Shown here: positions 8,124 to 31,937 of the stretch, piece by piece
Numbering within the stretch: position 1 is the first letter of the stretch
Layout: each line of letters begins with the position of its first letter
NCBI GenBank assembly: GCA_963836945.1
Contig: CAWILL010000014.1
Location: 106,486 to 170,485, forward strand
Direction of reading: 5' to 3'
Origin: an uncultured Acidobacteriota bacterium
Lineage (GTDB): Bacteria > Acidobacteriota > Terriglobia > Terriglobales > Acidobacteriaceae
Length of the DNA stretch: 64,000 bases
Notes under the pieces: model-generated
The model's database searches: none
Told to the model about the DNA's origin: nothing
What the model saw: only the letters and a program-made list of their open reading frames with translations
Program-made: the position numbers and the translations under genes

Positions 8124-10913
8124 TTATCTGGCCAGTTCCACCCAAGTCTGGGAGGACGAGAGTGGAATGACGTAAGCTCCACGATCCAATGGCGGCGAAC
8201 CACTCACGTGAAAAGAACCCACTCCGGCAAGATGCGCCGGTTGCTCGATCCGGATGCGCGCCTGAGGCGTAAACCCGTCCTTTGGCGCAAGTGCGATTCG
8301 CAGTTTTCCACTCTTTTCATTCCAAACCAGACGCTCGAATTGGCCGGAGTCCAACGTAAGCCAGAGGGCGGCAGGGGCGAGATAGAACCTGGTGCGCGAG
8401 GCGTCTTTGGGTTCCACCGTAACCTCATCGCCAGAAACCGAGATGTTTCCCCCGAAACAGATCCATCCGAAATCCGGATGGTTCGCAACGTAAGTCGCGG
8501 TATTCCACGCGTGCCCAAAAAAGTTCGGCCCGTTGTCCCCAGATAAAGGATCGAAGCGCAGCATATCGGGAAAGGAATGGAAGGCGGGCGCGTCAAAGCC
8601 CTGCTCGTCGACATCCGTAAGGGTGCCCATCACGCCGCCGTAACCTGCGCGGAGCAGGTGAAAATCTTCAGGATGCTCGCGGTATTCAGCGAGCATAGGA
8701 ATCGCATTGATGCCCGATCCATAATGATGAAGCTGGCGCTCGATGCGGCTATATTTTGCAGCGTAGATGAAATCCCAGTAACGGCGCGCGCTCCCGTTGT
8801 ATCCCCAATGCGGAACCGTCGGCATATATCCGATGATTGCATTCACCGTGACTTCTGCCTTGTCGTTATATCCGAAGTATTTGCTCCAGGCGTAGACCTC
8901 TTCCTGCCCGGTCGAGTCCCAAGGCATCTCGCTTCCGAAAGGATAAGCCTCTGTCTTCCAATGGTCGGCTCGCGCTTTCATCGCAGCTTCAAGTTGGGAG
9001 GCTTGTTCGTTTTTTCCTTCCCCCTTGAGGTCAGTCAGGATTGCCACGAAGATGTCGCCTTCCATTTGACCGAATTGCGCCAGACCTTCTGCGAAATGCG
9101 GCATTGCCATTGATGTTTGATACGCCTGATCGAGATACCAATCCCACGGATGATGCTTTACTAAGTTCGGATGATTGCGCGCGAGGCGGTAAAGGACCCA
9201 ATACGCGGCCGCCACGTGCGGATAATTGAACGATCTATCAATGGCCTCTGAAGCTTGCTTGTTCCAACTCGTCCAACTCTTCCAATCGAGATCAGAGCGA
9301 TAGTAGTTCGCCGGGAATTCATCAGGCTGATAGTAGAAGAGACTTTTCCTCACCCCATACTTCTTCGGTCCATCTTTGAACTGTATGCCGCCCCAAACCA
9401 CGTCATCCACAAACTGCTCCAGTTTGGCGACTTCATCCGGTTGTGGCTCCACAAATTCCTTCATGGCGAAGGCGAGCCATGATCCTGCTCCACCCTCATC
9501 GCTTAAACCGGCGATCCAGACACGACTGTCCTGGGTCACGATGTGGTTCTCTTCCCGGTCATAGGTCATCACTGAGGGTGCGCGGTGAAATGGATCCTTG
9601 GGATCGTCGAACCATTGTTCATGCGTGAGAAAACGACCCATATCGGCGACGGCCTCGGCCTGCGCCTTCATGACGAAATAATGGATCGACTGTGTGAGTC
9701 CGTCTGCATAGGTTACGGTCACTCGCGCTCGTCCCCATTGCTTGCCAGTCAGCACGTATTGGGTGAATGCGCGGTTCTCCGCTTCGCCTTTTTTCTGAAT
9801 GTCGATCGCGCCGACTGGCTCCGCTTCGATCGATTTCACTGGTTCCAAGTAGCGCAAGAAGAGTTGAGCATGAATATCTTTCGGAAGCACGTAGCCCGGG
9901 ATACCGACTGCGACCGGGCGATGGTTCTCCGCAAGAGCAGATTCAATGTTCTGGATGGAACTGACAACCACGAACTGGAAGCCTATGGTCCAGCTTTGGT
10001 TGGGCGCGAGGGTTTTCGATGTGGGCGGATTCCATGGTCGCGCTTTTTTCCATTCCTTCTCAGCGAAGGCTTGACTGACAACCATCCAGTCGTAGAAGCC
10101 CTCGAATGTTATTCCGCGAGGGGTTAAGTCCATGTAGATTTCTGGCTTTGGCTTCTGATGTTCACTCCAGCGCGGACTCAGAATCGGCTTGTAGGCTTCA
10201 AACGAGGTCTTGCCTTCTGGGATTACCAGCAAAGCAGGCCCGTGGCCGTTCAACCTGGTGATTTGAAGATAGCCTCCCTGCTGCCCGATGTAGGGATCGG
10301 AGAACGAGCAGATGGCATGTGCTTGCTCCAGAGTGCGCTCGTTCATGTCGTTGTTGAAGACCATGGGGACGCCAAGGCCACCGATCTCGATCGGAGCGCT
10401 CGTGTGATTCGCAAGGGTGAAACGCAGAGTGAGCTTGCCGTCGATGACGCCCCAGGCGCGAATTACCTGGAGCGGAATGGGGTCCGAAAATGCGCTGGTC
10501 AGATCCGCCGCCCCAAGGACGCCGCCCTCGTGTGGCATATTCCTTACGGGAGTCCGGCGAAGAGCTGTTGAGTAATCTTTCCACTGGCCTTTCTCGACTC
10601 TAAGGCGAACGTCGATGTCGCCCAGATGGTAGTAGCCGTCGTGCGAACGTTCCCCAAGGCGATCCCCCGGCGTGAAATCAAATTGCGCGTCGGTCTTGGG
10701 ATGAAGGGCCGCTACCGTCTGCGAAGAACGTACCAGCGACAACTGAAAGTCTGGTGTTTCAAAGTTCTCGAGGCCATCGGCGAGCATCGGCCCCGGCTGC
10801 GGAGGGGGCCCTTTCGGTTCCTGTGCGAGCGCACCAATGCTCGCGGTAAGGAAAATTCCGGCCCAGCACTTCAATACGAGCAGACGCAACAGCGGACGTG
10901 CTTGGCTCATCAT
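8124..10913 (-). CDS. Secreted 929-aa protein of unknown function in a glycoside-hydrolase operon (possibly DUF5695-like; family assignment unverified)
   Basis: Long clean ORF with a signal peptide (LLRLLVLKCWAGIFLTASIGALAQ). The start overlaps the GH51 stop (ATGATGA at 10908-10913). No catalytic motif recognised by eye. Confidence 0.8.
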   Translation of the reverse strand: MMSQARPLLRLLVLKCWAGIFLTASIGALAQEPKGPPPQPGPMLADGLENFETPDFQLSLVRSSQTVAALHPKTDAQFDFTPGDRLGERSHDGYYHLGDIDVRLRVEKGQWKDYSTALRRTPVRNMPHEGGVLGAADLTSAFSDPIPLQVIRAWGVIDGKLTLRFTLANHTSAPIEIGGLGVPMVFNNDMNERTLEQAHAICSFSDPYIGQQGGYLQITRLNGHGPALLVIPEGKTSFEAYKPILSPRWSEHQKPKPEIYMDLTPRGITFEGFYDWMVVSQAFAEKEWKKARPWNPPTSKTLAPNQSWTIGFQFVVVSSIQNIESALAENHRPVAVGIPGYVLPKDIHAQLFLRYLEPVKSIEAEPVGAIDIQKKGEAENRAFTQYVLTGKQWGRARVTVTYADGLTQSIHYFVMKAQAEAVADMGRFLTHEQWFDDPKDPFHRAPSVMTYDREENHIVTQDSRVWIAGLSDEGGAGSWLAFAMKEFVEPQPDEVAKLEQFVDDVVWGGIQFKDGPKKYGVRKSLFYYQPDEFPANYYRSDLDWKSWTSWNKQASEAIDRSFNYPHVAAAYWVLYRLARNHPNLVKHHPWDWYLDQAYQTSMAMPHFAEGLAQFGQMEGDIFVAILTDLKGEGKNEQASQLEAAMKARADHWKTEAYPFGSEMPWDSTGQEEVYAWSKYFGYNDKAEVTVNAIIGYMPTVPHWGYNGSARRYWDFIYAAKYSRIERQLHHYGSGINAIPMLAEYREHPEDFHLLRAGYGGVMGTLTDVDEQGFDAPAFHSFPDMLRFDPLSGDNGPNFFGHAWNTATYVANHPDFGWICFGGNISVSGDEVTVEPKDASRTRFYLAPAALWLTLDSGQFERLVWNEKSGKLRIALAPKDGFTPQARIRIEQPAHLAGVGSFHVSGSPPLDRGAYVIPLSSSQTWVELAR

Positions 10914-13459: not shown

Positions 13460-13504
13460 CAGTGAGCTACTCCCGAGTATCCATAAAGATGTAAAGAGAA
13501 CGAG

Positions 13505-15940
13505 CTAAGGTGTTTGATCCGCTCGAACGGTTCGCACACCAAAGATGGCCCCGATATCATTTCCATCCGTGGCCTGGAAGCGGACCGTCACTTTGCTCTT
13601 ACCCGCCATAAGCTCCGGCGGGATGACATAACTGGCATCCACGAATTGCTTTTCCTGATCGGGGCTGAGGTGCGGTTCTGCGTGATCGGCAATCTTCTTG
13701 CCTTCGACCACGATGTCGAGCGTGCTCTTTCGCCATCTGTCGCCGCCGAAGGTCACCCACAATGCGATTGGCCGCGAATTCTCAACCGGCATGTCGAATG
13801 AGAACCATCCCTTGCCTCCTCTCCCGTGTCGGCCTCGCCACAACAGTGGAGCAGAATCTTCACCTTGTTCATTGAAGTCGCGCTCCGACTGCATCTCGCC
13901 CGGTTGGGCAAGAGCGATCGTCGCATCCTGAAGCTTCTGCTGTTTCTCCTGCTCGGCTTTGTACTCGGCCGAACGCTTGTCCCACGCTTCCGGGGTGAAG
14001 ACATCCCAGTACACGGCGTATTTCCGTCGCGGAAGTTCATAGAAAGGCGCAAACTCGATGTCCTGGCTCAGGCCGACGTCGCTCGTCTTAAACCATCCGG
14101 GCTTTCCGGTTTCCGGCTTGAGGAACTGCTCGACTGGCTTTTTCGCAACGACCAGCGCCGGTGCCGACGGAGCCGGCATGTTCTCTTCGTCCTCCTGACG
14201 AAAGTCGGGCCCAAGATCTCCCGCCAGCACCAGCGGCCCCCACAGAAATGCCATCCGGCCAGAATTGTCGGGCAGCGGTTCGCTACGCAACACCTTCGGG
14301 AGATTGAGTTCAACCGTGTCGCCTTGCCGCCAGGCTCGGTTGATTTTGACGTAGGAATCCGCCGCTGGAAGATCTTTCACCAGTTGACCATTCACCTTCA
14401 CGCTGAAGCCGTCCCCGGCCCAATACGGCCTGCGCAGTGCGAGCGTAAATTGTTTGGCAACCTTGGTCCGAATTTTCACCGAAGCAAAAGAACCGAGTGG
14501 AAAGTCGGTCACCGTTTCCACTTCGACGCCAGCCGAATCCCACTTTGCGATCGACGGTGCGTACAGGCCGACCCAGAACTCCTCGGAACCTTTGTAATAG
14601 TAGATTCCCGCGCCGTGCAGTGCGTGGCTTTCCATGCTTGTGCCGACGCAGCAGGTGAAATCCTCAAACATGCGCTGGTATTCGTGCTGCACTCCGCGGC
14701 CGACGGGCAGCATGTAAGTTACAGTTCCGTCCTTCGGATCCTGCGACGCGAGAATGTGATTGAAGAGAGCGCGCTCGTGAAAGTCGGCATAGCGAATATC
14801 GGGCTCGATGGAGAAAAGCGTGCGCGTCATCTTCAACATGTTATAGACGTTGCACGTTTCGGCCGTACGGCCGTCCACCATGTCATTTAGCTTGTCCGGT
14901 TCTCCGAAGTACTCGTTCTTGCCATGGCCACCAGTGGCAAAGCTGTAGTGATAGACCACGCGATCCCAGAAAAATTTCGCAGCCTCCTCGTCAGCGGCAT
15001 TGCCGGTGTAGACGTACCGCATCAGCACGCCATAGAGTTTCGGGACCTGCGTATTTCCGTGGGTGTGAGAAATGACATCTTTGTCTTCGGAGAGCGGATC
15101 GATCATCGCCTTCTGGTGGAACTTGTCGGCGAGGATGAGCCAGCGCGGGTCTGCCGTGTCGGCGTACAACTCGGCGAGAACCTCGTTCATCCCGCCAAAT
15201 TCAGTGCCCAGCATGCGTTGCAGTTGATCGTCGTCTAACTTGGAAAGAATCTTTTCGACCCAGCCCGCAAACTTGATCTCGACCTGCAGAGCGGCTTCGT
15301 TGCCCGTGTACCTGTAAGCATCTCTGAGTCCGGCAAAGAGTTTGTGCTCGACGTACCACGGCGACCACAGACCGTTCAGATCGAAGCCTCCGGATTTAAT
15401 GACCCCGTTGCTCAGATCGACGAAGCGTTGTTTTCCATCGACGCCCTGACCATCCTCGAGCGCTCCGATATATCCATCTCCTTGCGCGTCCTGAATCTCT
15501 TTCAGTTGGTCCACAATGTAGTTGGCGCGCTCCTTGAATCGGGCATCGCCGGTGGCGGCCCACATCAAGCTCACCGCTGATAGATAGTGTCCCGCGATGT
15601 GTCCCGTCAGATTGCGCTTTGGCCCATCCCATCCGCCGTAGCCGTCGGCCTTCGGTTTCAACCCGGCACGCTGGCGCAGGAAGGCAAGCATGCGGTCGGG
15701 CCGGAGTTCGAGCAGATACTTTGCATCGGCCTCCTGGGCTGCTTTGAGGGGGCCTCCTGTCAGCCTCACATGATTCAGCGGGAGCGGATTCAGCTTGACC
15801 GTCTTGCTCTCCGCCAATTGCGCAGGATTTTCATTTCTGGCCGCAGCCCGCAACCGCACGACTAAGCAGGCTGATAAACAAACCCAAAGCAGATTCCTCA
15901 TCACGCGACTTCTTGAAACGTAGAGCAGAGCTTTCGACAT
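13505..15940 (-). CDS. Glycoside hydrolase family 127 (DUF1680) beta-L-arabinofuranosidase-like protein
   Basis: NLTGHIAGHYLSAVSLMWAATGD...YIVDQLKEIQDAQGDGYIGA and TCCVGTSMESHA are typical of GH127/HypBA1-like proteins. Start chosen at MSKALLYV (ATG 15940) with GAGG 7 nt upstream. Alternative starts are at 15967 and 15901. Confidence 0.85.
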   Translation of the reverse strand: MSKALLYVSRSRVMRNLLWVCLSACLVVRLRAAARNENPAQLAESKTVKLNPLPLNHVRLTGGPLKAAQEADAKYLLELRPDRMLAFLRQRAGLKPKADGYGGWDGPKRNLTGHIAGHYLSAVSLMWAATGDARFKERANYIVDQLKEIQDAQGDGYIGALEDGQGVDGKQRFVDLSNGVIKSGGFDLNGLWSPWYVEHKLFAGLRDAYRYTGNEAALQVEIKFAGWVEKILSKLDDDQLQRMLGTEFGGMNEVLAELYADTADPRWLILADKFHQKAMIDPLSEDKDVISHTHGNTQVPKLYGVLMRYVYTGNAADEEAAKFFWDRVVYHYSFATGGHGKNEYFGEPDKLNDMVDGRTAETCNVYNMLKMTRTLFSIEPDIRYADFHERALFNHILASQDPKDGTVTYMLPVGRGVQHEYQRMFEDFTCCVGTSMESHALHGAGIYYYKGSEEFWVGLYAPSIAKWDSAGVEVETVTDFPLGSFASVKIRTKVAKQFTLALRRPYWAGDGFSVKVNGQLVKDLPAADSYVKINRAWRQGDTVELNLPKVLRSEPLPDNSGRMAFLWGPLVLAGDLGPDFRQEDEENMPAPSAPALVVAKKPVEQFLKPETGKPGWFKTSDVGLSQDIEFAPFYELPRRKYAVYWDVFTPEAWDKRSAEYKAEQEKQQKLQDATIALAQPGEMQSERDFNEQGEDSAPLLWRGRHGRGGKGWFSFDMPVENSRPIALWVTFGGDRWRKSTLDIVVEGKKIADHAEPHLSPDQEKQFVDASYVIPPELMAGKSKVTVRFQATDGNDIGAIFGVRTVRADQTP

Positions 15941-15962: not shown

Positions 15963-15975
15963 AGCAAACGTTTTC
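15963..15975. promoter_or_regulatory. Pseudo-palindromic motif AGCAAACGTTTTC (LacI-family-operator-like), copy 1, just upstream of the GH127 gene
   Basis: The 13-nt string is identical to 32007-32019. Its core AAACGTTT is palindromic. Confidence 0.4.
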
Positions 15976-17609: not shown

Positions 17610-17613
17610 AAAG

Positions 17614-22155: not shown

Positions 22156-22402
22156 TTATCGGTTCGCTCGCTTGGGATAACAGATTTGGCTGTTAACCCT
22201 CTCCATCCCGGTAGGGGATATCTTATGGATACAATATGCAATCGTCAATCCTAACCATCCCTTTCCTCTCCATCAGTCCATAAAAATAGACTCCAAGCCA
22301 ATGAAAATAATACCTTTTCTTGAACAGCATTCACTAACCGTTGAATCCCCTTTGCATACATTCTGCGGTATACTTCCTGCGAGGAGCTTGGGGCCGGCGA
22401 AC

Positions 22403-23160: not shown

Positions 23161-25509
23161 CTAGCTGATCTGTCCGACAATTTCAAACTGCTTTTTGCCC
23201 TTCGTTTGGATCCTTACAGTATCTCCGTGAACTCCTGCAAGAGGCGCAGATTCACCGTCGAGGGTCACGCGTTCCAGACTCATTCCCGCAGGAAGCCGAA
23301 GCTTAAAGTGTAGTTCCTTTGGGGTTGTAGCTCCGGTGAGCTCAACGTGTCCGACTACAGATTTGTCCTCTTTCTTGATCAGACTGAAGCTGACCCGGCC
23401 CCAGCGCGTCGGAGCTTTTTGAATCTGGATCAGTTTTCCGGAGGCGACCCACTCTCGCGGAACACCTTTCGCCAGATACAGAATCTCGGCATCAGAGTCT
23501 TCCAGCACCAGCATCCACCGAACCAGCAGTGGAATGGTCTGCTGCGCTGGAAGACAGTAAGTCCCAGAATCGCCAGTGATGCCGGTTACTTCGCCGGCCG
23601 TCCAACTTCCCCGCGTGTGGGCATGATAGCGGTGGGCATAGAGAAACAGCAGAAACTCTTCGATTCGATCCAGGCGCAAGAGCATTTGAGCGTATCCGTA
23701 GGAGATGAAACCAAGAATCTCTCTCCCCTCCGGCCCAAAGCGCCACACGTTGGCGACCACTCCAAGAGTGGTTGCGCCGTGAGCGCGCATGCAGTCGATC
23801 ACGAGGTTCGCAAGATTCGGAGGCAAGATATCGGCTTGCAGCAGTTCAGCATAAGGCCGATGCGGCCACTGCTGTGGACTGGGCTTCTCTTTCTCAAGCG
23901 ATTCGCGGAAGGTGAGAGTTGTTCCTGGGAAGATCCCGATGTACGGCGGGGCCTTATCTCTTTGGATATTCTGTTCGATGCTCTTGATGGTCTGATCCTG
24001 CAAAGTCTTGCTGCGCTTGAGCCACTCGTCAGCCAGAGTTTGCATAGCAGGCGCCGAGTTAGCCCGGCCCAATTGCGTCCAGACCTTGGCTAGATCTTTG
24101 AAACCGCGCGCGGCAAACGCACTGTTGGCGTAATAAGGCTGCCAATACAGTGACGGCGTTGCGCTCAAGCAAGAATCCGATTCGCTCCATCCGCGGATCA
24201 GACCGTGCCCCGGATTGTCTTCCGGCAGTTGGAGACTCTCGTCGTGCATGTCCGCCAGCTGTTTCGCGGTCGCTTCGATTTTCGCTCTGTGCTTCAGAAG
24301 CAGCCGGGCGTCGCCGCTGTAATTGAAGTACCGCGCGAGAAGAGAGAGGGTCATGCCGAACTGCGCGGTCTCCGGACCACGCATATCGATCATGCCGTTG
24401 TCGTCGACGTATTCGGAAAAGTAGTTATCGATGAAGAGCCGTGCAGTATCCAAACGCCCCCATTCCATGTTGGTGTAGATGGCGCTGGTGAAGATGTCCT
24501 GAAAACCATCGTATTCTGAACCCGCGTAGTCGCGATCCACTGCGCCGTATTTCGGATAGACGCCAGCGGGGCGAGTCATCAGCTCTTTGACGAATGCATG
24601 CTTCGATAAATCGATCCAGTCACGCCGTGGCAAAGAAGCCTGAGAGCAGTCGTGCAAAAGTCGCTGCCAGTATTGGGCAAACTCGAGCCATGCGCGATAA
24701 AACTCCTCTGGCTTAGGATCTTGTCTCGCAGGCGGAAAGGCCGGGTAGCTGTGGCCATACACAACCTCGGCGATCTTACCGTCCTCGATACGCGCCGCCC
24801 GGTGCCACGTGTGGACGATGTATTTGTTCTTGTTTGGGCGCACGTCGCCGAACAGGACGATCTCCCAATGACCTTCGCTCGCAGTGGTGATGACTTTGCG
24901 TACGGCCGGCATCCAGCCACCCACGAGCCCATCGAAGATTTGCCCATGCTCGGTGGCTTCGCGCAATCGAGGAAAGTACTGCCCCGCGTGATAAGTGCGG
25001 GTGCCTCCGCCTCGGTAGACGGGAGTGACGTCGTAGGCTTCCTTTGTTCCTACAAACGTCGTCCACATCCGCGGATTCTTCTCCGCCGACGCCATGGGAG
25101 GAGCGGCCGTTCTGACTGCTTCTGGGTCGGGATCGCCATTTTGTAGGAGGCGATCCGCCAGCAAATCAGCGGACGACGTTCCGATATCCCGCAACGCCAG
25201 GCCTAGATAAGGCGTTCCCCCAGCCATGGAAGCCTCAGCGCTCTTACCCAGAGAGAACGTCTCTCCGGAAGACGACAGAAAGATCAGCGCGCCTTCCCGC
25301 GTGCGAAGATCTTCATAGACCTTCCACGAAGCGCTTTGCGAATTGAATTCTGAAACGAGAGTGCACCCTTCCACCGAAACAGGAGGACCGGAAACGGTGC
25401 TCGATAACGGATGCTTACGAGTCTGGGCTTCCCTGACACCGAGACCGTCGAGCAGATCGAGACCGGCGGCGCTCACCGCCACACTTTGCAGGAATGTTCT
25501 TCGGTCCAT
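23161..25509 (-). CDS. Tat-exported 782-aa protein of unknown function
   Basis: Twin-arginine signal MDRRTFLQSVAVSAAGL. Clean long ORF, last gene of the TBDR-peptidase operon. No family recognised by eye. Confidence 0.8.
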   Translation of the reverse strand: MDRRTFLQSVAVSAAGLDLLDGLGVREAQTRKHPLSSTVSGPPVSVEGCTLVSEFNSQSASWKVYEDLRTREGALIFLSSSGETFSLGKSAEASMAGGTPYLGLALRDIGTSSADLLADRLLQNGDPDPEAVRTAAPPMASAEKNPRMWTTFVGTKEAYDVTPVYRGGGTRTYHAGQYFPRLREATEHGQIFDGLVGGWMPAVRKVITTASEGHWEIVLFGDVRPNKNKYIVHTWHRAARIEDGKIAEVVYGHSYPAFPPARQDPKPEEFYRAWLEFAQYWQRLLHDCSQASLPRRDWIDLSKHAFVKELMTRPAGVYPKYGAVDRDYAGSEYDGFQDIFTSAIYTNMEWGRLDTARLFIDNYFSEYVDDNGMIDMRGPETAQFGMTLSLLARYFNYSGDARLLLKHRAKIEATAKQLADMHDESLQLPEDNPGHGLIRGWSESDSCLSATPSLYWQPYYANSAFAARGFKDLAKVWTQLGRANSAPAMQTLADEWLKRSKTLQDQTIKSIEQNIQRDKAPPYIGIFPGTTLTFRESLEKEKPSPQQWPHRPYAELLQADILPPNLANLVIDCMRAHGATTLGVVANVWRFGPEGREILGFISYGYAQMLLRLDRIEEFLLFLYAHRYHAHTRGSWTAGEVTGITGDSGTYCLPAQQTIPLLVRWMLVLEDSDAEILYLAKGVPREWVASGKLIQIQKAPTRWGRVSFSLIKKEDKSVVGHVELTGATTPKELHFKLRLPAGMSLERVTLDGESAPLAGVHGDTVRIQTKGKKQFEIVGQIS

Positions 25510-25533: not shown

Positions 25534-27804
25534 CTAACGACGTCGTCTTCTCGATCTCTCCGCGTCTCGATCTTCCTTAACCTCGAAGTTGGGCGGCGGG
25601 GTAACTCCGAGCAGGTGTTGCACCAAGTAATCCCAGCGCCGCCGCACCAGGTAGCGCGCGTGTTCCCCGCTCTCGCCGTGAAACATGTTGGGCACGAACA
25701 GCATGTCGAAATCTTTGTTGGCCTTCATGAGTGCATCGGCCAACCGCATGGTTTCTACCGGGTGCACATTGTCATCGATGTCGCCATGTTCCAGAAGCAG
25801 GTGTCCTTTCAAACGGCTCGCCATGGTAACGTTCGATTGCTCCATGTAATCGTCCTGCACGGGATATCCCTGGTAGAGTTCGTTCCACCAAGCCTTATCC
25901 AGCCGCGCATCGTGATCACCAGAAGTGGAGACCCCGACTTTGTAGAAATCCGGAAACGCCAGCATGGCATGAGCCGCACCATAGCCGCCGGCCGATGTTC
26001 CGAAGATTCCAACGCGCTCGACATCCATGTAGGGGTAACGAGACGCCATCTGCTTGATCATCGCCACATGATCTTCGAAGGCACCGCCCAGGTTTCGGTA
26101 CGAGAACAGATGAAAGGCGCGTGATCGTCCGGACGTGCCGCGCCCGTCGATCATCACGACCACAAACCCCAGTTCGGCCATGGACTGAAGCCAGAACGTA
26201 TTAAAAGTCTTGGGCACAAAAAAAGATTGCGGTCCGGTGTAGACAAATTCGACGATGGGATACTTCGTGGCCGCGTCAAAATTCGACGGACGCCAGATCA
26301 ATCCATGCAAATCGGTTGTGCCGTCGGCCGCCTTCCCCTGAAATGGCTCCGGCGCTTTCCAGCCCATCTTCGTCAGCCAAGAGGAATCCGATTCTTCGAG
26401 AGTCCGCTGCTGTGAGCCGTCTTTCGCCCGCCGCAACCCTACCTTGACCGGCAGATCCGGACGTGAGTAGGTATCGATGAAGTAGGCGCCGTCCCCCGAA
26501 AAGTTGACGGAATGAGTCGCGTTCTCGGGCGTAAGCAACTGAAGTCCCTTGCCGTCGAAGCCGGCGCTGTACAGATGCGTCTGATAGGGGTCTTCATCCT
26601 TCTCGCGTCCACTGGCCGTGAAATACACGCGGCGACTCGGTTCATCGACATATTCAATCTGTTGAACCACCCAGTGACCCTGCGTGATCTGGTTCTCAAG
26701 TTGTCCGGTTTTGCTATAAAGATACAGATGATTCCAACCATCCCGTTCTGAACTCCACAGAATCTCGCCAGTGCCTTTTATGAACCGATAGAATGTTTCG
26801 CCCGGATCCACATACGGGTCCGACTGCTCGCGCACCAGGACTCTTTGCTCTCCGGTGGAGGCATCAACCACACGAAGCTCCTTCGCCTTGTACCCGCGCT
26901 CGTCGTAGTCGTAAAAGAAGCTCTTGCTGTCAGGAAACCACTCAAACCCGGGCCCCTCCTGAAACGGCAATTCGATCGAGCCAGACTTCACATCCGTACG
27001 TCGCCCAGATTGAATATCGAAGATGATAGGCTCCGCTCTGGCCAGCACCTCACCCGGCAGTGGATAGACGTAGGTGAATGCCTTGGGCCGGAGCTGGTTC
27101 GGCGGAACGAATTGCACGCTGGTGAAGCGCCCAGAATTTCGGGAATCAATGCGATAGGTGATCAGCTTGGAGGAGTCCGGCGCCCAGAACACCGCGGCAG
27201 GCTGCTTCACATCTTCAGTGCCCTGATCAACCATCAACCGTAGCGACGGAAGTGGGGTGGCATAGTCCCAACTTTTCACTCCATCCTGCGTCAGTTGCAA
27301 CTCTGTGCCAGTGGAGACGTCACGCAAATAAAGATTGTGGTCTCGAACAAAAGCAGCCCAGCGCTTGTTCGGGGAGAGTTCTTCATTCGAGTGCTTCGGT
27401 TCGGCAGGATCGCTCTTGCACTCGTAGCCGGCAAGGGAACAGGTCCACTCTGCCCCGTCGAGTAAGAAGCGGATTGTCTTGCCGTCATCCCCGAACTCAA
27501 ACTCTCGAAAAGGCAAGTCGGATGGGGAGTATTCCTGTTTATTCGCGTGAGACAGAGCGGCGGCGATGCGTGCATGGTCGAACGCGGGACCGGTAGCATC
27601 CCGCTCCGAGTCGACGAGAATAAATTCATTACCGCTGGTGGAGGACTTGCGATACCAGAATCGGCTCGTCTTCTGAATCCAGTGGGGGTTTACGTCGGCA
27701 ATGTACAGAACATGTCGCAGATTTCCCGGAAGAAACTGCTGCGCTCGTTCATAGTCCTCTTGCTTCCCTTGCGCCGCCAATCGAGGCGCAAGAATAGACG
27801 ACAA
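25534..27804 (-). CDS. S9 family serine peptidase, dipeptidyl-peptidase IV-like
   Basis: DPP-IV N-terminal propeller region followed by an alpha/beta hydrolase domain with GIFGTSAGGYGA (GxSxGG), GDIDDNV and MFHGE. The true start is probably upstream (see the finding on ATT 27843). Confidence 0.85.
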   Translation of the reverse strand: MSSILAPRLAAQGKQEDYERAQQFLPGNLRHVLYIADVNPHWIQKTSRFWYRKSSTSGNEFILVDSERDATGPAFDHARIAAALSHANKQEYSPSDLPFREFEFGDDGKTIRFLLDGAEWTCSLAGYECKSDPAEPKHSNEELSPNKRWAAFVRDHNLYLRDVSTGTELQLTQDGVKSWDYATPLPSLRLMVDQGTEDVKQPAAVFWAPDSSKLITYRIDSRNSGRFTSVQFVPPNQLRPKAFTYVYPLPGEVLARAEPIIFDIQSGRRTDVKSGSIELPFQEGPGFEWFPDSKSFFYDYDERGYKAKELRVVDASTGEQRVLVREQSDPYVDPGETFYRFIKGTGEILWSSERDGWNHLYLYSKTGQLENQITQGHWVVQQIEYVDEPSRRVYFTASGREKDEDPYQTHLYSAGFDGKGLQLLTPENATHSVNFSGDGAYFIDTYSRPDLPVKVGLRRAKDGSQQRTLEESDSSWLTKMGWKAPEPFQGKAADGTTDLHGLIWRPSNFDAATKYPIVEFVYTGPQSFFVPKTFNTFWLQSMAELGFVVVMIDGRGTSGRSRAFHLFSYRNLGGAFEDHVAMIKQMASRYPYMDVERVGIFGTSAGGYGAAHAMLAFPDFYKVGVSTSGDHDARLDKAWWNELYQGYPVQDDYMEQSNVTMASRLKGHLLLEHGDIDDNVHPVETMRLADALMKANKDFDMLFVPNMFHGESGEHARYLVRRRWDYLVQHLLGVTPPPNFEVKEDRDAERSRRRRR

Positions 27805-27935: not shown

Positions 27936-30900
27936 TCAGAATTCCACGTTCGCTCGCAATTCGATGACGCGCGCCCCCCCGTTCGGGCTGTTGGGATTGC
28001 CCGCGTTCGCATTGGAGAGGGTTCCATTGCTAAGCCCAAATCCCCCACTTTGAATGACGTTGAAACCAAAGTTCGCAGCTCCGTTGGTTGCTCCGGGACC
28101 AAAAGTCGGGTGATTGAATGCATTGAGCATCTCGGCTTGCAGGCTGAAACGGAGCCTCTCGGTGATCGGGAAGCGCTTGGTGATCGAGATATCGTCGAAC
28201 GTATTATGCGGTCCGTAAAGCCAGACACGTTGCCCGATTGTACCGGGTGTAGTGTTCTGCGAAATAAACGCCGGATTGGCCCCTCCGCTGGGATTGAGGT
28301 ACTTAGGATTGATAAAGGCAACGCTCGTCGTCCCGGGTATGTGGTACGAGCCCACTCCACTCTGCAACTGTGAAGCCGTTATGCCGTTGAGTACGATGCC
28401 GCCATCACCGTAGTCGTTAAAGGTATTGGTTCCCCCGATCAGATAAAACGGGGCTCCGGTCTGGAAGGTGAAGATCGTGCCCACCGTCCAACCTCCGATG
28501 ATGTGGTCAATAACGCCGCCGCGATTCGCAAATTGCCTGCCCTTCCCAAATGGTAGATCGTAGCTCCCGCTGACGTGTATGACGTGTTTAAGGTCAAACA
28601 GAGCTGGTCCGTAGCTCAGGCGCATGTTGCGCAGGCTGAAAACGTTGGTTTGGCCTTGCCAATTGTTCTGAGTTCCCGTCCCAAGCGTGTGACTCCATGT
28701 GTAATTTGCGTCAAACTGCATTCCGTGCCACTGCCGTTGCCGGAAGTCGACTTGCATCGCGTTGTAGTTGGAGTAGCCCTCTGCGACCGCGTACGTTCCG
28801 CCCGGGCCGCCCGGAACAACGCCGTAGGGATTCGCGACAAAGAAGTTGATCGGATATCCCGCTCCCGGATTGGTTGAAGGGAAGCCAGCATTGTTGACGC
28901 AGGGAGCAAAACTTGCCCCGACCAGATTGCAGAAATAAGGCGCAGCGCCGTTGATATTAGCGAGCACGCCAGCCATGGCGCCTGCGGCTCCGTTATTTAA
29001 TTGGGTGATGAATCCGCTGTCACCGTAGTCCGCTAACGGTATACCAGCTCCGCCAGATGCCTCACCCGCGAATGCGGCATCGAAAAGAGGCAAGGCCTGC
29101 TGGCCGGCAAAACCATTGTTAGCAAATGAAGTGATGCCGTTGGCTGCATTTATGGCAAGGTTCTGTTGCGCTGCCTTGAACTGGCTAAGAAAACCGTTCT
29201 CAAAGATGTTAACTTCATTTGGATTGACTGTGATCCATTGGCGCAGAGTACGACTGCCAACATAGCGCAACTCGAGAGCACGGCTTTCGCCCAGTTGACG
29301 CTGGATGCCCAAATTCCACGACTCAGTGTAGGGCTGTTGAATATCTGACTTAATCCCATTCAGAGGTCCGAAGAAGCCTGGTCCGCCCAGGAACGTGAAA
29401 TCCGCTGCCGGTTCCGTCTTGAGGTAAGTCTGCGGCGAGCGTATGTAGGGTATTCCGAACGCAGTGGTGGGATCGCCGCCAGGAGTGAAATTGTCCATCG
29501 ACAATGTTCCCGGCACAAACGTGCCCGGCTGCCCAGTGGCATTCGCGTTGAGAGCGAATATCTGATAATAGTAGGCCTGATAATCCGTAGCCTGGTTCCA
29601 TACATATTGCTGGGGCTCGGTGAGTTTCCTTAACGAGAAACCGGCGCGAATCACGGTCTTGTCCCCACCAAGCCGCCCGCCGAATCCATTGTTGGAGGGA
29701 TTCCATGCGATGCCAATGGCAGGTTGCGGGGATACATTCCAATTTTGGTAGGCTTGGCTGATCTGAATCACTGACGGATTCGGATCGCCCTTGAAGGAAC
29801 CTGGATTGAAGAGATTCCAGACTCCGGACGGACCAAACATAGAACTGGTCGTCACCGAGTGATAGAGATTGGTAAGATCCCTGTCCGCTCGGGTAAAGTC
29901 CCAGCGCAGCCCAAAGTTGAGCGTGAGATTCGGCTTTATTCGATAGGAATCCTGAAAGAACAGGCCAGTGCCGCCAGTGACCTCATCAAGGTTGTACCTT
30001 CCCACCGCAGGTGTGTAGTCGTTGGTTGATGGGTTAAAGGCATAGCTTCCGCCCACACTCGCGATCCGAGCCGCAAGGATTGCGTAGAGTTGCTGCGCTT
30101 CGGCTTGGATATTCGTGTCGTTGGCAGTTGTATTCGGAAGTGTTCCACCAGCCGTAAAGGCGTTACGCGCAGGATCTCCGGTAGCCAATCCGAAATTGAC
30201 TACAGGAAAGCCTTGCACAGGGTTGTAATAGTGGTTCTGCTCGCGCCACCACGAGAACCCGAAATTCATGGTGTGCGCACCATGCTGCCAGGTCATCGTA
30301 TCGGACACATTAAAGATCGGATATAGAGTTTGGACACCCGTGTTGAAGACCGTCCCCGACATCATGGTGTTCTGCGGTCCGCCGATATTGGTGTAACTCC
30401 ATCCCAGTTGCGGGCTATTTATGTCTAGCGGACTTGCGCCCGCAGCAAACTGCTCGGCGTGGTACAGGTAGCCCCCGCGAAAGTCGTTGACTATGGTCGG
30501 AGACAGTGTCCAATCGAAACCAAAGCCGGCGGTGTAAAACTTGGCGGCATACCCGGCTCCGGTCTTCGCCCAATCGGATCCCGGAAAGTCGGGTGGCGAA
30601 CCGGGATCTCCTGAGCGGTTAATTTTGGTCATGTTCCAGGCGAGGTTGAAACGCATTTTCTGCGAAGCGTCGAAATCTACACGGACTGTGGGAAAGTACT
30701 GAGTGGTTGGATTCGGCACTTTCCAATTCAGGTTCTGAAGATTGGGATCACCTGCATTAGGACTCAGATTACCCGCAGACGCGGCGCTATTGGCAGCACT
30801 GAATACCTTCTGAGTGCTGTTTTGATTCACTTGTGTGGGCAAGGTTTGACCCTGCGCACATGAGGGGTTAGCGTTGCAGTTTGCTGCCAGCGTAAAAAGG

Positions 30901-31937
30901 TTGACGGTGTTCCCGTTGTAGCTGAAATTACCGGTTTGCGCTGCCTGGGTGAACAGGTAATTCAACGCGGTGTACGCGCCCGGTTGCTTGCTCTCAGCGT
31001 ACGTTCCAAAGAAGAAGAGCTTGTCTTTGATGATCGGGCCTCCGACGCTCACTCCAAACTCGTTGAGGATCAGATGATTTTTCTTCGCCGGGTTGGTTGG
31101 ATCGATCGCTGTGAGGGCGTCATTGAGCCAACTGTTTGCATCGAGAGATGAGTTTCTGAAATCCTCATAGACTCGGCCGTGAAAGGCATTGCTGCCTCGG
31201 CGAGTCACAAAATTGAGCTGCATATTGGACTGGCCAAACCCCTGGTCCAAGTTCAATTGCTCGGTCTGCACCGTCATTTCCTGCATGGATTCCAATCGCG
31301 GCTCTAAATCCGGAGCGTCATTTCCGCCAAATTTCATGCGACTCGTGCTACTGATGACGCCGTCGATGTTGTTCCCTTGCGCGATGGCCGGAAGCCCGTC
31401 GTACGTTCCGGATCCGTTGACGCCGCCGTACCCGGGCACCAGTTGCGACAGTGCTGCCAAGTTGCGGCCTTGCAGCGGCAGATCCTCGATCTGCTTCATG
31501 TCGATATTCGTTCCGATCGCATTCGTTGTCGTCTCCACGAGAGGGGCTGTGCCGCCTGTAACCTGCACCGTCTCGCTGATCGCGCCGACTTTCAAATTCG
31601 CAGTAATGTCAGTTGTCTTCGCCGCCTGGACAATCACATCAGTAAATTCCTGGCTCTGGAAACCTGCTTTTTTCACCGTCAGGCTGTACTTGCCGAGAGA
31701 CAAGCTCGGGAACGTATGAATGCCTTGCTCCTGAGTAGTCGCTCTGCGGATGCTGTTGGTCGCGATATCGCGAAGTTCCAGATCGGCGCCTTGCACCACG
31801 CTGCCGCTCGGATCCAGAACCGTAATGGTGACTGTGCCCTCAGAGCCGTGCTGGGCCTGAACGCTCGGCACACGGATTACAAGGAAAGCCGCAAGGGCGA
31901 TCACGACACATGCTGCAGATTTCGTGGCGAACTTCAT
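27936..31937 (-). CDS. TonB-dependent receptor with N-terminal carboxypeptidase-regulatory-like domain (1333 aa)
   Basis: Signal peptide, then a CarboxypepD_reg-like TVTITVLDPSGSVVQGADLELRD...GKYSLTVKKAGF, a plug region, a long beta-barrel, and a terminal aromatic residue (...LRANVEF). Confidence 0.9.
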   Translation of the reverse strand: MKFATKSAACVVIALAAFLVIRVPSVQAQHGSEGTVTITVLDPSGSVVQGADLELRDIATNSIRRATTQEQGIHTFPSLSLGKYSLTVKKAGFQSQEFTDVIVQAAKTTDITANLKVGAISETVQVTGGTAPLVETTTNAIGTNIDMKQIEDLPLQGRNLAALSQLVPGYGGVNGSGTYDGLPAIAQGNNIDGVISSTSRMKFGGNDAPDLEPRLESMQEMTVQTEQLNLDQGFGQSNMQLNFVTRRGSNAFHGRVYEDFRNSSLDANSWLNDALTAIDPTNPAKKNHLILNEFGVSVGGPIIKDKLFFFGTYAESKQPGAYTALNYLFTQAAQTGNFSYNGNTVNLFTLAANCNANPSCAQGQTLPTQVNQNSTQKVFSAANSAASAGNLSPNAGDPNLQNLNWKVPNPTTQYFPTVRVDFDASQKMRFNLAWNMTKINRSGDPGSPPDFPGSDWAKTGAGYAAKFYTAGFGFDWTLSPTIVNDFRGGYLYHAEQFAAGASPLDINSPQLGWSYTNIGGPQNTMMSGTVFNTGVQTLYPIFNVSDTMTWQHGAHTMNFGFSWWREQNHYYNPVQGFPVVNFGLATGDPARNAFTAGGTLPNTTANDTNIQAEAQQLYAILAARIASVGGSYAFNPSTNDYTPAVGRYNLDEVTGGTGLFFQDSYRIKPNLTLNFGLRWDFTRADRDLTNLYHSVTTSSMFGPSGVWNLFNPGSFKGDPNPSVIQISQAYQNWNVSPQPAIGIAWNPSNNGFGGRLGGDKTVIRAGFSLRKLTEPQQYVWNQATDYQAYYYQIFALNANATGQPGTFVPGTLSMDNFTPGGDPTTAFGIPYIRSPQTYLKTEPAADFTFLGGPGFFGPLNGIKSDIQQPYTESWNLGIQRQLGESRALELRYVGSRTLRQWITVNPNEVNIFENGFLSQFKAAQQNLAINAANGITSFANNGFAGQQALPLFDAAFAGEASGGAGIPLADYGDSGFITQLNNGAAGAMAGVLANINGAAPYFCNLVGASFAPCVNNAGFPSTNPGAGYPINFFVANPYGVVPGGPGGTYAVAEGYSNYNAMQVDFRQRQWHGMQFDANYTWSHTLGTGTQNNWQGQTNVFSLRNMRLSYGPALFDLKHVIHVSGSYDLPFGKGRQFANRGGVIDHIIGGWTVGTIFTFQTGAPFYLIGGTNTFNDYGDGGIVLNGITASQLQSGVGSYHIPGTTSVAFINPKYLNPSGGANPAFISQNTTPGTIGQRVWLYGPHNTFDDISITKRFPITERLRFSLQAEMLNAFNHPTFGPGATNGAANFGFNVIQSGGFGLSNGTLSNANAGNPNSPNGGARVIELRANVEF

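Follow-up and report, generated by a model that had tools for sequence, protein, structure and literature searches.

A hydroxyproline catabolic operon joined to exported arabinofuranosidases, a peptidase and an outer-membrane receptor in an acidobacterium: a candidate locus for the use of hydroxyproline-rich glycoproteins

Gene content and layout of the locus

The window, by which we mean the whole 64 kb stretch of DNA analysed, comes from a soil acidobacterium (Terriglobia). An ORF check found every gene at the position and on the strand given by a first-pass annotation made from the sequence, although the run that it had counted as eleven same-strand genes consists of nine, from hypE to the DUF5695 gene, with overlaps or short gaps throughout. 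A hydroxyproline (Hyp) catabolic operon is followed, after a gap of 76 nt, by genes for a clan GH-P β-L-arabinofuranosidase, a GH51 enzyme and a DUF5695 protein; beyond the Hyp operon lie a divergent GntR gene and an operon for an outer-membrane receptor, an S9 peptidase and a 782-residue protein (U782), Table 1. Domain annotation with Pfam, a check that had been proposed, recovered the expected families, among them those of the divergent regulator and, together with the Tat motif of U782, those of the receptor operon. The GH3 gene does converge on the run as described, but it is restricted to the three closest relatives (L001-L003) and is therefore no conserved part of the locus; its product reaches no NCBIfam equivalog.

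Table 1 Genes and candidate regulatory elements of the locus, in window positions
Feature	Position	Strand	Basis
GH3 and PA14 exo-glycosidase, doubtful member of the locus	5574..8090	+	Pfam; convergent
Exported DUF5695 protein, predicted distant PL27-like β-sandwich, (α/α)6 and β-sandwich	8124..10913	-	Pfam DUF5695, 1282 bits
Exported GH51 α-L-arabinofuranosidase (plant/fungal ASD1 type) with inserted lectin-like module	10910..13459	-	Pfam ASD1_dom and Alpha-L-AF_C
Exported clan GH-P β-L-arabinofuranosidase-like protein, GH146-type, C-terminal DUF6805 jelly-roll	13505..15940	-	Pfam PF07944, PF20736 (127M) and DUF6805
LacI-type palindromic 12-mer GCAAACGTTTTC, candidate site	15964..15975	.	24 nt upstream of the GH146 ATG, inside the 76-nt gap
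Aldehyde dehydrogenase (ALDH), candidate α-ketoglutarate semialdehyde (KGSA) dehydrogenase	16017..17609	-	Pfam Aldedh
DHDPS/NAL-family protein, candidate Pyr4H2C deaminase	17614..18537	-	Pfam DHDPS, 169 bits
HcnB-like Pyr_redox_2 and BFD [2Fe-2S] subunit	18534..~19832	-	Pfam
83-residue 2Fe-2S (Fer2_4) subunit	19825..20076	-	Pfam, 63.8 bits
DAO-family flavoprotein, candidate catalytic subunit of D-Hyp dehydrogenase	20063..21193	-	Pfam DAO, 221 bits
4-Hydroxyproline 2-epimerase (LhpA-like), hypE	21199..22155	-	Pfam Pro_racemase; NCBIfam NF010577; PA1268/2AZP match
hypE promoter TTGACG-17-TAAGAT	22220..22248	-	Promoter scan
Imperfect palindrome TGGATACAATATGCA, candidate GntR-type operator, in the hypE promoter spacer	22226-22240	-	Conserved block
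GntR/FCD-family regulator, divergent from hypE	22301..23131	+	Pfam GntR and FCD
782-residue Tat-exported protein U782, predicted β-sandwich, (α/α)6 barrel and β-sandwich	23161..25509	-	RRxFLQ Tat motif
S9 DPP-IV-like serine peptidase (DPPIV_N and Peptidase_S9)	25534..27804	-	Pfam, 199 and 139 bits
1333-residue outer-membrane receptor (CarboxypepD_reg and OMP_b-brl_4), heading the receptor-peptidase-U782 operon	27936..31937	-	Pfam, 417 and 57 bits
LacI-type palindromic 12-mer GCAAACGTTTTC, candidate site	32008..32019	.	71 nt upstream of the receptor ATG

The hydroxyproline operon

The epimerase matches Pseudomonas aeruginosa PA1268 (2AZP) at 409 bits, a 62%-range match, and both of its catalytic Cys motifs (MCGHGT and SPCGTGTSAK) align with that structure, as had been predicted; against the NCBIfam model NF010577 it scores 432 bits, slightly below the cut-off of 442. 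Judged by its domains and gene order, the three-subunit D-Hyp dehydrogenase of the first-pass annotation also appears to be present. The DAO gene keeps its operon position among related loci, the Fer2_4 gene overlaps its neighbours on both sides, and the HcnB-like subunit probably starts at MSNYSRERFDVLVVGGG, overlapping the Fer2 stop; the three expected domains thus lie in the expected overlapping order, which is kept in more than 30 loci. The DHDPS-like protein reaches no NCBIfam equivalog model, and its role as deaminase is therefore assigned from its place in the operon; its gene still adjoins the GH146 gene in three loci that lack the rest of the hyp genes (L007, L016 and L078). The ALDH finds its best NCBIfam match in AlphKGSA_gudD (126 bits, far under that model's cut-off) and its best PDB match in 1EYY (453 bits), and we infer from context that it would act as the KGSA dehydrogenase.

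The bacterial trans-4-hydroxy-L-proline pathway was reportedly worked out by Watanabe et al. and White et al., with Lhp genes in Pseudomonas and Azospirillum, and the hyp cluster of Sinorhizobium carries a GntR-type regulator, HypR. The present operon shares with these systems the Cys/Cys epimerase, the three-gene dehydrogenase (DAO, 2Fe-2S, HcnB-like), the DHDPS-family protein as candidate deaminase and the ALDH, and with Sinorhizobium the divergently transcribed GntR-family regulator. It differs from them in being flanked on both sides by genes for exported glycosidases, a peptidase and a receptor, and in that its ALDH and DHDPS-like protein score below every curated equivalog. Most loci have the GntR gene next to the hyp operon; alignments of its product to homologues begin at residues 18-35, and the true start is likely Met35, at 22403.

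The glycosidases and their companions

All glycosidases of the locus carry export signals. The clan GH-P enzyme, which has a signal peptide and which the first-pass annotation had called GH127, is closest among characterised proteins to the GH146 enzyme BT0349 (5OPJ; 447 bits, 36% identity, E=1e-132), in an alignment that spans residues 53-803 of 811 and includes the C-terminal jelly-roll. Against GH127 structures the scores are much lower, 35 bits for HypBA1 (3WKW) and 53-86 bits for the others, and we rejected a HypBA1-type identity. The motifs AETCN, FTCCVG and NEYF align with PETCN, WCCVG and REHF of BT0349, that is, with the Cys nucleophile, the Cys3-Glu zinc site and the acid/base Glu, roles that we take from the literature (PMC10850190). 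According to the same study, characterised GH146 members are specific for β1,3 linkages in AGP and arabinan and leave the β1,2 or Hyp-O bonds of extensin intact, and BT0349 itself belongs to an RG-I locus. The locus enzyme thus resembles BT0349 and Bll3HypBA1 (8K7X), with the full-length architecture of BT0349, its active-site-capping C-terminal jelly-roll and the Glu-x-Cys and Cys-Cys zinc/nucleophile motifs, but it is only 36% identical to BT0349, and its neighbours are Hyp catabolism, S9 and DUF5695 genes where theirs are RG-I genes or AGP galactanases. The GH51 assignment held up on both Pfam domains, with 263 bits to MgGH51 (6ZPS); the gene varies in presence among close relatives and is missing from L001, L003 and L004.

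What had been described as a secreted unknown of 929 residues does carry an export signal and belongs to a recognised Pfam family, DUF5695. PL27 is an L-rhamnose-α-1,4-D-glucuronate lyase, acting on AGP caps, and the DUF5695 protein may have a distant PL27-like fold: its AF2 model, of low confidence (pLDDT 61), has the PL27 enzyme BACCELL_00875 (5NOK) as top Foldseek match (E=9e-18, TM-score 0.25-0.37), and that entry is also the one that a PDB profile search singles out (E=0.0015, four collinear pieces, 14% identity). The two would share an N-terminal β-sandwich and (α/α)6 barrel layout, whereas DUF5695 is ~235 residues longer, with an extra predicted C-terminal β-sandwich, and extensin offers a PL27 lyase no obvious uronic-acid substrate. 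The gene directly follows that of GH146 in ~25 loci of several phyla. U782 has more than 1600 homologues and no Pfam, NCBIfam or PDB sequence match; the best Foldseek matches of its low-confidence AF2 model (pLDDT 58.6) are (α/α)6 glycosidases (GH78 at 1.7e-7, then GH127, GH116 and GH183), which suggests a fold of that kind. GH121 gave no PDB-chain sequence match to any protein of the locus, U782 and DUF5695 included, and is absent from the top Foldseek matches of these two models.

The receptor and the peptidase

Of the claim of a TonB-dependent receptor, the barrel family stands, while a Plug domain (Pfam, E<=1e-3) or TonB box was not found, nor was an NCBIfam match; with CarboxypepD_reg and OMP_b-brl_4 as its only domains at that threshold, the protein is presumed TonB-dependent from its barrel family. 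Receptor homologues head the equivalent operon in three further loci (L161, L163 and L164). Like the SusC/SusD PULs of Bacteroidota, the locus groups genes for exported CAZymes with one for an outer-membrane receptor and has a regulator site of its own. Unlike in those systems, no ORF scanned contains a SusD-like domain, the gene after the receptor being that of the S9 peptidase; the receptor belongs to an acidobacterial type (CarboxypepD_reg/OMP_b-brl_4), and the substrate would be a glycoprotein, not a polysaccharide, with a pathway for amino-acid catabolism added.

The S9 DPP-IV-like peptidase of the first-pass annotation has the expected DPPIV_N propeller, the S9 domain and, at residue 602, a GTSAGGYG serine motif matching GxSxGG. 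Its true start probably lies upstream, near 27870: its homologues bear signal peptides, and the upstream in-frame codons encode the missing h-region, in a stretch with no canonical start codon. Since DPP-IV-type enzymes, to our knowledge, generally leave X-Pro|Pro bonds uncut, Hyp4 blocks may need other peptidases.

Two candidate regulatory sites

Of 15 orthologous intergenic regions, 13 retain the hypE promoter block, and all three unseen loci have it ~100-125 nt upstream of hypE; in the window it occurs once, with its GntR-type palindrome, at hypE. The LacI-type palindrome GCAAACGTTTTC has exactly two copies in the window, one before the GH146 gene and one before the receptor gene, the latter in a divergent region common to the receptor gene and an FG-GAP/ASPIC gene. 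Its core is conserved in the equivalent gap before GH146 in L001-L005, L009, L011, L012 and L038 and also lies upstream of receptor homologues in L008, L010, L014, L015 and L127, while the core AAACGTTT precedes the receptor gene by 90-150 nt in all three loci not used for motif finding.

These sites bear on the proposal that the locus works as one unit, which in its strictest form would make hypE to DUF5695 a single operon under the divergent GntR alone. The nine tightly packed genes on one strand speak for it, as do the lack of a terminator-like hairpin in the 76-nt gap (15941-16016), as had been reported, and of a sigma-70-like promoter there in the promoter scan. The gap is not featureless, however, for it holds the conserved operator-like palindrome just before GH146, identical to that before the receptor gene; the GntR-type palindrome is confined to hypE, and the glycosidase block is present or missing independently of the hyp operon among relatives. 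We therefore consider a single operon unlikely and its description as one unit doubtful. The difference between the site at the hyp promoter and that at the glycosidases and receptor operon points to two juxtaposed regulons under modular control, with partial co-transcription by read-through across the gap possible.

Recurrence of the linkage

The synteny check proposed by the first-pass annotation supported the adjacency of glycosidase and Hyp genes more strongly than its authors could have known. Among 80 loci anchored on GH146, Hyp genes lie beside it in 11 of the 17 close informative loci and in 8 of the 48 distant ones, the latter including Verrucomicrobiota (L036, L040, L054), Armatimonadota (L032), Abditibacteriota (L053) and a distant Terriglobia genome (L030), and gene orders and strands differ from one such locus to another. 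HypE falls within 10 kb of distant GH146 relatives in 6/48 informative loci, for which the binomial P is 4e-4 to 1e-6 at assumed background rates of 2% to 0.7%; the link is not due to chance. Clusters of other phyla (L035, L036, L032) contain S9 and multiple paralogues of GH127/146 and DUF5695, which fits a substrate rich in β-L-Araf.

In the reverse direction, an S9, U782, DUF5695 or GH-P gene accompanies 11 of the 28 long HypE-anchored metagenome loci and ~60% have no accessory gene, so that the linkage is facultative. In L092 and L095 the gene immediately after that for the ALDH encodes DUF5695, and in L089 a DUF5695 gene lies downstream of the hyp genes with no ALDH match there, in each case without GH146; L084, L113 and L132 have another, different GH127-like gene immediately next to hypE. 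Conversely, GH146 orthologues at 80% identity stand without hyp genes in L006, L008, L010 and L013-L015. All three look-ups anchored on U782 returned the order receptor-S9-U782-GH27-(GH51), GntR, S9-permease, hyp operon. A GH27 α-galactosidase is encoded in ~14 related loci, and relatives further have another S9 peptidase and a permease for amino acids. The functional link of Hyp catabolism, arabinofuranosidase, S9 peptidase and receptor, as first proposed, is thus upheld by its recurrence, with gene orders rearranged, in four phyla or more and by these look-ups.

Known arabinoside clusters and competing explanations

GH121 is the extensin-specific arabinobiosidase of known systems. Bifidobacterium longum has a cluster of hypAA (GH43), hypBA2 (GH121) and hypBA1 (GH127) with an ABC transporter, and Xanthomonas euvesicatoria one of XeHypAA, XeHypBA2 and XeHypBA1 with an adjacent prolyl oligopeptidase pseudogene (PMC7263609, PMC6085000; the GH121 structure is published in PMC7263609). 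The present locus resembles both in combining an α-L-arabinofuranosidase with clan GH-P β-L-arabinofuranosidase(s) and in its presumed substrate, hydroxyproline-rich glycoproteins (HRGPs), and the Xanthomonas cluster also in its exported enzymes and adjoining prolyl-type peptidase. It departs from them in having GH51 for GH43, a GH146-like enzyme for GH127 and no GH121, in adding two uncharacterised families, DUF5695 and U782, and in its presumed uptake by an outer-membrane receptor instead of an ABC system. Its physical joining to an apparently complete Hyp catabolic operon is described in neither PMC7263609 nor PMC6085000, and we found no published description of a linkage between Hyp catabolism and glycosidases.

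We consider it reasonably probable that the locus serves to harvest plant (or algal) HRGPs, most likely extensin-type Hyp-arabinoside glycopeptides, and to burn the released Hyp. Extensin carries a single Ser-O-α-Gal, which the GH27 of relatives would match. Several findings count against this reading: characterised GH146 enzymes cut β1,3-L-Araf, and the locus enzyme is 36% identical to one of them; DUF5695 finds its closest structural match in a lyase of AGP caps; no GH121 homologue was found in the locus; confidence is low in both structure models (pLDDT ~60); the linkage is facultative; and the window is without GH27, an inner-membrane transporter or L-arabinose catabolic genes. One could also imagine that the glycosidases strip AGP side-chain caps, with β1,3-Araf falling to GH146, α-Araf to GH51, α-Gal to the GH27 of relatives and Rha-GlcA to the PL27-like DUF5695, and that the Hyp-rich core uncovered in this way goes to peptidases and the Hyp pathway. 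Among characterised proteins, those closest to the GH146-like enzyme and to DUF5695 do both act on AGP or arabinan caps (PMC10850190). A DUF5695 paralogue lies with GH39, GH51, GH127 and GH31 in L165, and a GalT gene adjoins the GH146-DUF5695 pair in L057. AGP backbones, however, would need a β-galactanase and a β-glucuronidase, and neither was seen in the window; more broadly, the window and the related loci examined contain no exo-β-1,3-galactanase, β-1,6-galactanase or β-galactosidase and no β-glucuronidase or unsaturated glucuronyl hydrolase. As AGPs are >90% sugar, a link to Hyp rather than galactose catabolism would be odd, and the PL27 relation on which the assignment leans is remote. 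We thus regard AGP caps as a rather unlikely target.

That the locus merely juxtaposes two neighbours with no common substrate, a pectic arabinan or arabino-oligosaccharide module (GH146, GH51, DUF5695 and receptor) and a module in which the hyp operon and S9 serve free Hyp or collagen-type peptides, seems to us improbable. The separate cis elements would agree with it, as would the origin of BT0349 in an RG-I locus (PMC10850190), the GH146 orthologues that have a receptor and no hyp genes (L008, L010, L014 and L015) and the many hyp operons with no glycosidase nearby. It is at odds, however, with an adjacency that recurs in at least four phyla in differing arrangements, with the binomial P of at most 4e-4 for HypE near distant GH146, and with the S9 gene sharing one operon with an (α/α)6 protein, GH27 and GH51 behind a receptor gene that bears the "sugar-type" site, a layout from which co-expression is predicted.

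Proposed role

On the HRGP reading, the receptor would import glycopeptide fragments across the outer membrane. In the periplasm, GH51 would take off α-L-arabinofuranose caps and the GH146-like enzyme β-L-arabinofuranose, alongside DUF5695 and U782, while in relatives GH27 would take off α-galactose; the S9 peptidase would cut the Pro/Hyp-rich backbone. Hyp would then enter the cell, in relatives through an APC permease, and be converted to α-ketoglutarate by the epimerase, D-Hyp dehydrogenase, Pyr4H2C deaminase and KGSA dehydrogenase. A GntR-type repressor site in the hypE promoter would govern the hyp module, and a LacI-type site would be common to the glycosidase genes and the receptor operon. 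Since Hyp genes are paired across phyla with exported glycosidases, a peptidase and an importer, the locus is probably a kit for plant cell-wall glycoproteins.

Layout of the locus

When checked in the window, the open reading frames of the first-pass annotation proved to be correctly placed, but the run that it had counted as eleven same-strand genes holds nine (see the table). Neighbouring genes in this run overlap or lie a few bases apart, save for 76 nt before and 45 nt after the gene of a GH146-like glycosidase. On the far side of a GntR gene lies an operon for a receptor, an S9 peptidase and a 782-aa Tat-exported protein, here called U782. The remaining window contains MacB/FtsX, glycosyltransferases, FG-GAP/ASPIC and TPR proteins and housekeeping genes, and domain scans found no transporter or sugar-catabolic genes among these ORFs. 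The converging GH3 gene was dropped as a member of the locus because it is not conserved among relatives. The nearest public relatives are MAGs labelled Candidatus Sulfotelmatobacter or Acidobacteriota, at 94% protein identity. The paired FG-GAP/ASPIC (CRTAC1-like) and TPR genes that flank the receptor gene are also found beside it in relatives (L127, L161, L163, L164, L165).

Features of the window, with positions in window coordinates
Feature	Position	Strand or placement	Assignment
Pro_racemase-family gene (epimerase, hypE)	21199-22155	minus	Pfam domain
DAO flavoprotein	20063-21193	minus	Pfam domain
Fer2_4 protein, 83 aa	19825-20076	minus	Pfam domain
Pyr_redox_2 + BFD protein (HcnB-like)	18534-~19832	minus	Pfam domains
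DHDPS-family protein	17614-18537	minus	Pfam domain
Aldehyde dehydrogenase (ALDH)	16017-~17600	minus	Pfam domain
GH127/146 catalytic domain + DUF6805 protein	13505-15940	minus	Pfam domains
GH51-type arabinofuranosidase	10910-13459	minus	Pfam domains
DUF5695 protein	8124-10913	minus	Pfam domain
GntR/FCD gene	22301-23131	divergent from nine-gene run	Pfam domains
U782, RRxFLQ Tat motif	23161-25509	minus, beyond GntR	no Pfam, NCBIfam or PDB sequence match
DPPIV_N + Peptidase_S9 protein	25534-27804	minus, beyond GntR	Pfam domains
CarboxypepD_reg/OMP_b-brl_4 receptor, 1333 aa	27936-31937	minus, beyond GntR	Pfam domains
GH3 + PA14 gene		converges at 8090	Pfam domains
Paired FG-GAP/ASPIC and TPR genes	32024-37838	flank receptor gene	
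ORFs of 155-370 aa	4847-5314, 41966-43078, 60666-61316, 61847-62467		no Pfam match
TGGATACAATATGCA	22226-22240	hypE promoter spacer	putative GntR-type
GCAAACGTTTTC	15964-15975	24 nt before glycosidase ATG	putative LacI-type
GCAAACGTTTTC, second copy	32008-32019	71 nt before receptor ATG	

The S9 ORF begins at a TTG, its first canonical start codon, and lacks there the signal peptide that is present in all homologues. The in-frame codons upstream (27805-27900, minus strand) contain no ATG, GTG or TTG and encode LRSWVLPVALLSSILAPRLAAQG, which resembles the h-region of the homologues. This suggests that translation begins at a non-canonical codon, or that the start codon was altered by recent mutation or by an error in sequencing.

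Conservation of the linkage

We scanned with the glycosidase, taking one genome per GTDB species, and searched the resulting 80 loci with all window proteins. Among close relatives (at least 79% identity), genes of the hydroxyproline (Hyp) pathway adjoin the glycosidase gene in 11 of 17 informative loci; among distant ones (53-66% identity; 48 informative loci), 6 encode HypE, the 4-Hyp 2-epimerase, no more than 10 kb away and 8 encode some Hyp-pathway gene. If the background is taken as 0.7-2% per 20-kb neighbourhood, a value assumed rather than measured, the binomial probability comes to 1e-6 to 4e-4. The distant linked loci belong to Verrucomicrobiota (L036, L040, L054), Capsulimonas (L032), Abditibacterium (L053) and Ca. 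Angelobacter (L030), and gene order and orientation vary: the glycosidase gene can precede or follow hypE or be encoded on the other strand. About 25 loci have the GH146 and DUF5695 genes as direct neighbours, among them loci from Pyrinomonadaceae at 55% identity, and clusters from other phyla (L035, L036, L032) combine several GH127/146 and DUF5695 paralogues with an S9 peptidase. GH146 orthologues at 80% identity also lie behind a receptor gene without hyp genes in L008, L010, L014 and L015.

A reverse scan of metagenomes with HypE recovered loci whose common core is the six-gene hyp operon with a divergent GntR gene; among those of at least 12 kb (n=28), 11 also carry an S9, U782, DUF5695 or clan GH-P gene. 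A DUF5695 gene directly follows the ALDH gene in L092 and L095, which have no GH146 gene; in L089, which has neither an ALDH match nor a GH146 gene, it is found further down from the hyp genes. A different GH127-like gene abuts hypE in L084, L113 and L132. As a third anchor we chose three U782 homologues from long contigs (L161, L163, L164), and all three show the same succession: FG-GAP/TPR genes, receptor-S9-U782-GH27-(GH51), GntR, a second S9 peptidase with an APC permease, and hypE-DAO-Fer2-HcnB-DHDPS. About 14 related loci encode the GH27 alpha-galactosidase, whose gene sits between U782 and GntR in the receptor operon of L005, L007, L009, L011, L086, L092, L094, L097, L153, L161, L163 and L164, and is absent from the window and from L001-L004. 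The APC amino-acid permease occurs in about 12 related loci; it and the second S9 peptidase are divergent from hypE in relatives, and both are missing from the window.

The adjacency of Hyp genes and glycosidases, from which a single extensin-utilisation unit had been proposed, is thus seen in a share of the relatives and recurs under forward, reverse and U782 anchors. Because synteny appears under all three, and orthologues without hyp genes exist as well, the linkage is real and recurrent, but facultative.

Two of the loci deserve separate mention. In L019, an 82%-identical relative, the hyp operon (12558-20468) is placed downstream of the GH146 gene in opposite orientation and seems eroded, with only partial matches to HypE and HcnB and unrelated ORFs on the other strand; these genes may be pseudogenes or reflect assembly problems. 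L165 carries a RES-Xre toxin-antitoxin pair (18122-19257) within an arabinofuranosidase-rich cluster (GH127, GH31, DUF5695, LacI, GH39, GH51).

Catabolic enzymes, glycosidases and orphan families

At 409 bits the epimerase aligns with P. aeruginosa PA1268 (2AZP), both catalytic cysteines included, and it scores 10 bits below the NCBIfam equivalog cut-off for 4-Hyp epimerase. The domains of the DAO, Fer2_4 and Pyr_redox_2 + BFD proteins are those of the three-subunit D-Hyp dehydrogenase in the Lhp system, for which the trio is a candidate. For the DHDPS-like and ALDH proteins the assignment stops at family level; their putative roles, Pyr4H2C deaminase and KGSA dehydrogenase, follow from operon position, and the PDB matches of the former do not tell a Pyr4H2C deaminase from a DHDPS or a KDA dehydratase. 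In L007, L016 and L078 the DHDPS-like gene directly adjoins the GH146 gene without epimerase and dehydrogenase genes, and L009 has epimerase-DHDPS-ALDH with the dehydrogenase genes absent. Since a DHDPS-family KDA dehydratase and a KGSA dehydrogenase also terminate the oxidative L-arabinose route, the two genes might serve both Hyp and arabinose.

The glycosidase originally called GH127 is GH146-like when scored against solved structures, reaching 447 bits with the GH146 founder BT0349 (5OPJ), 186 bits with the GH146 enzyme Bll3HypBA1 (8K7X) and 35 bits with the GH127 enzyme HypBA1 (3WKW). The alignment with BT0349 spans the whole protein, the C-terminal jelly-roll included (36% identity), and it retains the zinc/nucleophile motifs (Glu-x-Cys, Cys-Cys) and the acid/base Glu; an exact-sequence look-up of the protein returned no record. 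The GH146 members characterised to date act specifically on Araf-beta1,3-Araf of arabinogalactan proteins (AGPs) and arabinan and leave beta1,2 bonds intact (PMC10850190). The GH51 protein is of the plant/fungal ASD1 type (MgGH51 at 263 bits), and its presence is polymorphic between the window and L001, L003 and L004, whose neighbouring genes are 90-94% identical; L161 and L164 have a shorter GH51 in the receptor operon. An export signal is present on every glycosidase.

Single-sequence PDB searches with U782 and DUF5695 gave no match. By a wide margin, the top Foldseek match of the low-confidence AF2 model of DUF5695 (pLDDT 61) is the PL27 rhamnose-glucuronate lyase BACCELL_00875 (E=9e-18), which its sequence profile retrieves independently (E=0.0015); PL27 enzymes take Rha caps off gum arabic AGP (PMC8377490). 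The U782 profile found nothing usable in the PDB. Its AF2 model (pLDDT 58.6) has a beta-sandwich / (alpha/alpha)6 / beta-sandwich architecture, and at this confidence its Foldseek matches are exclusively (alpha/alpha)6 glycosidases (GH78, GH127, GH116, GH183, GH94). In hhalign, U782 showed no relation to DUF5695 or to GH146 (probability <1%), on alignments too shallow for such a comparison (Neff 1.6). The U782 family alignment has invariant cysteines C447, C573 and C652, and E380 is present. Around residues 361-390, U782 weakly resembles the acid/base / Glu-x-Cys region of GH146 (NYFSEYVD..MRGPETAQF versus NEYFGEPD..DGRTAETCNV; hhalign probability again <1%), which could be chance or a very remote relation within clan GH-P.

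Two putative regulons

An upstream block of hypE, TTGACG-17-TAAGAT, is kept in 13 of 15 orthologous regions, and its spacer is the imperfect palindrome TGGATACAATATGCA, which in two loci is a perfect TGGATAT-T-ATATCCA. The palindrome occurs once in the 64 kb window, and the lack of a second one before the receptor or GH146 gene led us to reject a single GntR regulon covering the locus. A terminator scan bore out the absence of a terminator from the 76-nt gap, and this gap holds GCAAACGTTTTC, a site conserved in nine orthologous gaps. The identical 12-mer recurs once in the window, before the receptor gene; about 0.008 occurrences of an exact given 12-mer are expected by chance. A degenerate form of the motif has 26 matches in 2.15 Mb of fetched loci; of these, 17, spread over 15 loci, lie no more than 350 nt upstream of the start of a GH146, receptor or GH51 gene. 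The three U782-anchored loci had no part in the discovery of either motif, and in each of them the receptor gene is preceded by the AAACGTTT core at 90-150 nt and hypE by the GntR-type palindrome at about 100-125 nt. Domain scans found no LacI-family gene in the window; in L165, beside a DUF5695 paralogue, the AAACGTTT motif lies 70 nt upstream of one, a candidate type of regulator for the site.

From these motifs, we read the locus as two putative regulons side by side, with inferred regulators and effectors: a Hyp-responsive catabolic operon and a harvesting set, presumably sugar-responsive, of the receptor-S9-U782 and GH146-GH51-DUF5695 genes, with possible read-through across the 76-nt gap. 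The first FG-GAP/ASPIC gene, divergent from the receptor gene, shares with it the intergenic region carrying a AAACGTTT site, and may therefore join the same regulon.

Substrate and significance

Extensins and other hydroxyproline-rich glycoproteins (HRGPs) are cross-linked, protease-resistant components of plant and algal walls, and the extensin glycomodule is Ser(alpha-Gal)-Hyp(beta-Ara3-alpha-Ara). The window and its relatives link an alpha-L-arabinofuranosidase, at least one clan GH-P beta-L-arabinofuranosidase, an alpha-galactosidase, DPP-IV-type peptidases, an amino-acid permease and Hyp catabolism, a set that matches what this glycomodule, with its Ara4 chain (PMC6085000), would require. 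We consider it probable that the locus serves HRGP / extensin-type glycopeptides. One could also suppose that the glycosidases target AGP caps, a reading that stays alive because the nearest characterised relatives of the GH146-like enzyme and of DUF5695 act on AGP or arabinan caps, but that we judge unlikely; no galactan-backbone or glucuronidase genes were seen, an absence that speaks against AGP polysaccharide being the principal target. That the modules are unrelated neighbours seems to us highly improbable.

The HRGP reading can be extended, more speculatively and with considerable doubt, to one in which DUF5695 and U782 found new carbohydrate-active enzyme families and the GH146 clade has Hyp-O-arabinoside activity. 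Joined by GH51, GH27 and two S9 peptidases, these proteins would then make up a complete bacterial route from extensin to free Hyp and arabinose, the first of its kind and common among soil Acidobacteriota and Verrucomicrobiota. In that case the two end products might meet at alpha-ketoglutarate semialdehyde and the ALDH of the locus.

Known trimming of Hyp-arabinosides uses GH43, GH121 and GH127, with ABC uptake in B. longum and, in Xanthomonas, secreted enzymes and a prolyl-oligopeptidase pseudogene nearby (PMC7263609, PMC6085000). Compared with these clusters, the window locus has other families (GH51, GH146-like, DUF5695, U782) and an outer-membrane receptor for import, and is joined to a full Hyp pathway. 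We found no description in the open-access papers searched of a linkage between Hyp catabolism and arabinofuranosidases; a paper on Latescibacteria merely lists GH127 in genome content. To our knowledge, soil turnover of HRGPs is largely obscure, and only two bacterial glycan-trimming clusters have been characterised, neither tied to amino-acid use.

We regard the HRGP reading as a hypothesis that is well supported and open to test. It offers a provisional candidate role to two large orphan families, DUF5695 (>4000 homologues) and U782 (>1600 homologues), and it suggests that GH146 function is broader than the beta1,3 specificity described to date. Import, deglycosylation, proteolysis and Hyp catabolism in one locus, which recurs in abundant, uncultured peat and forest-soil lineages, would give a testable route for the carbon and nitrogen pool held in HRGPs.
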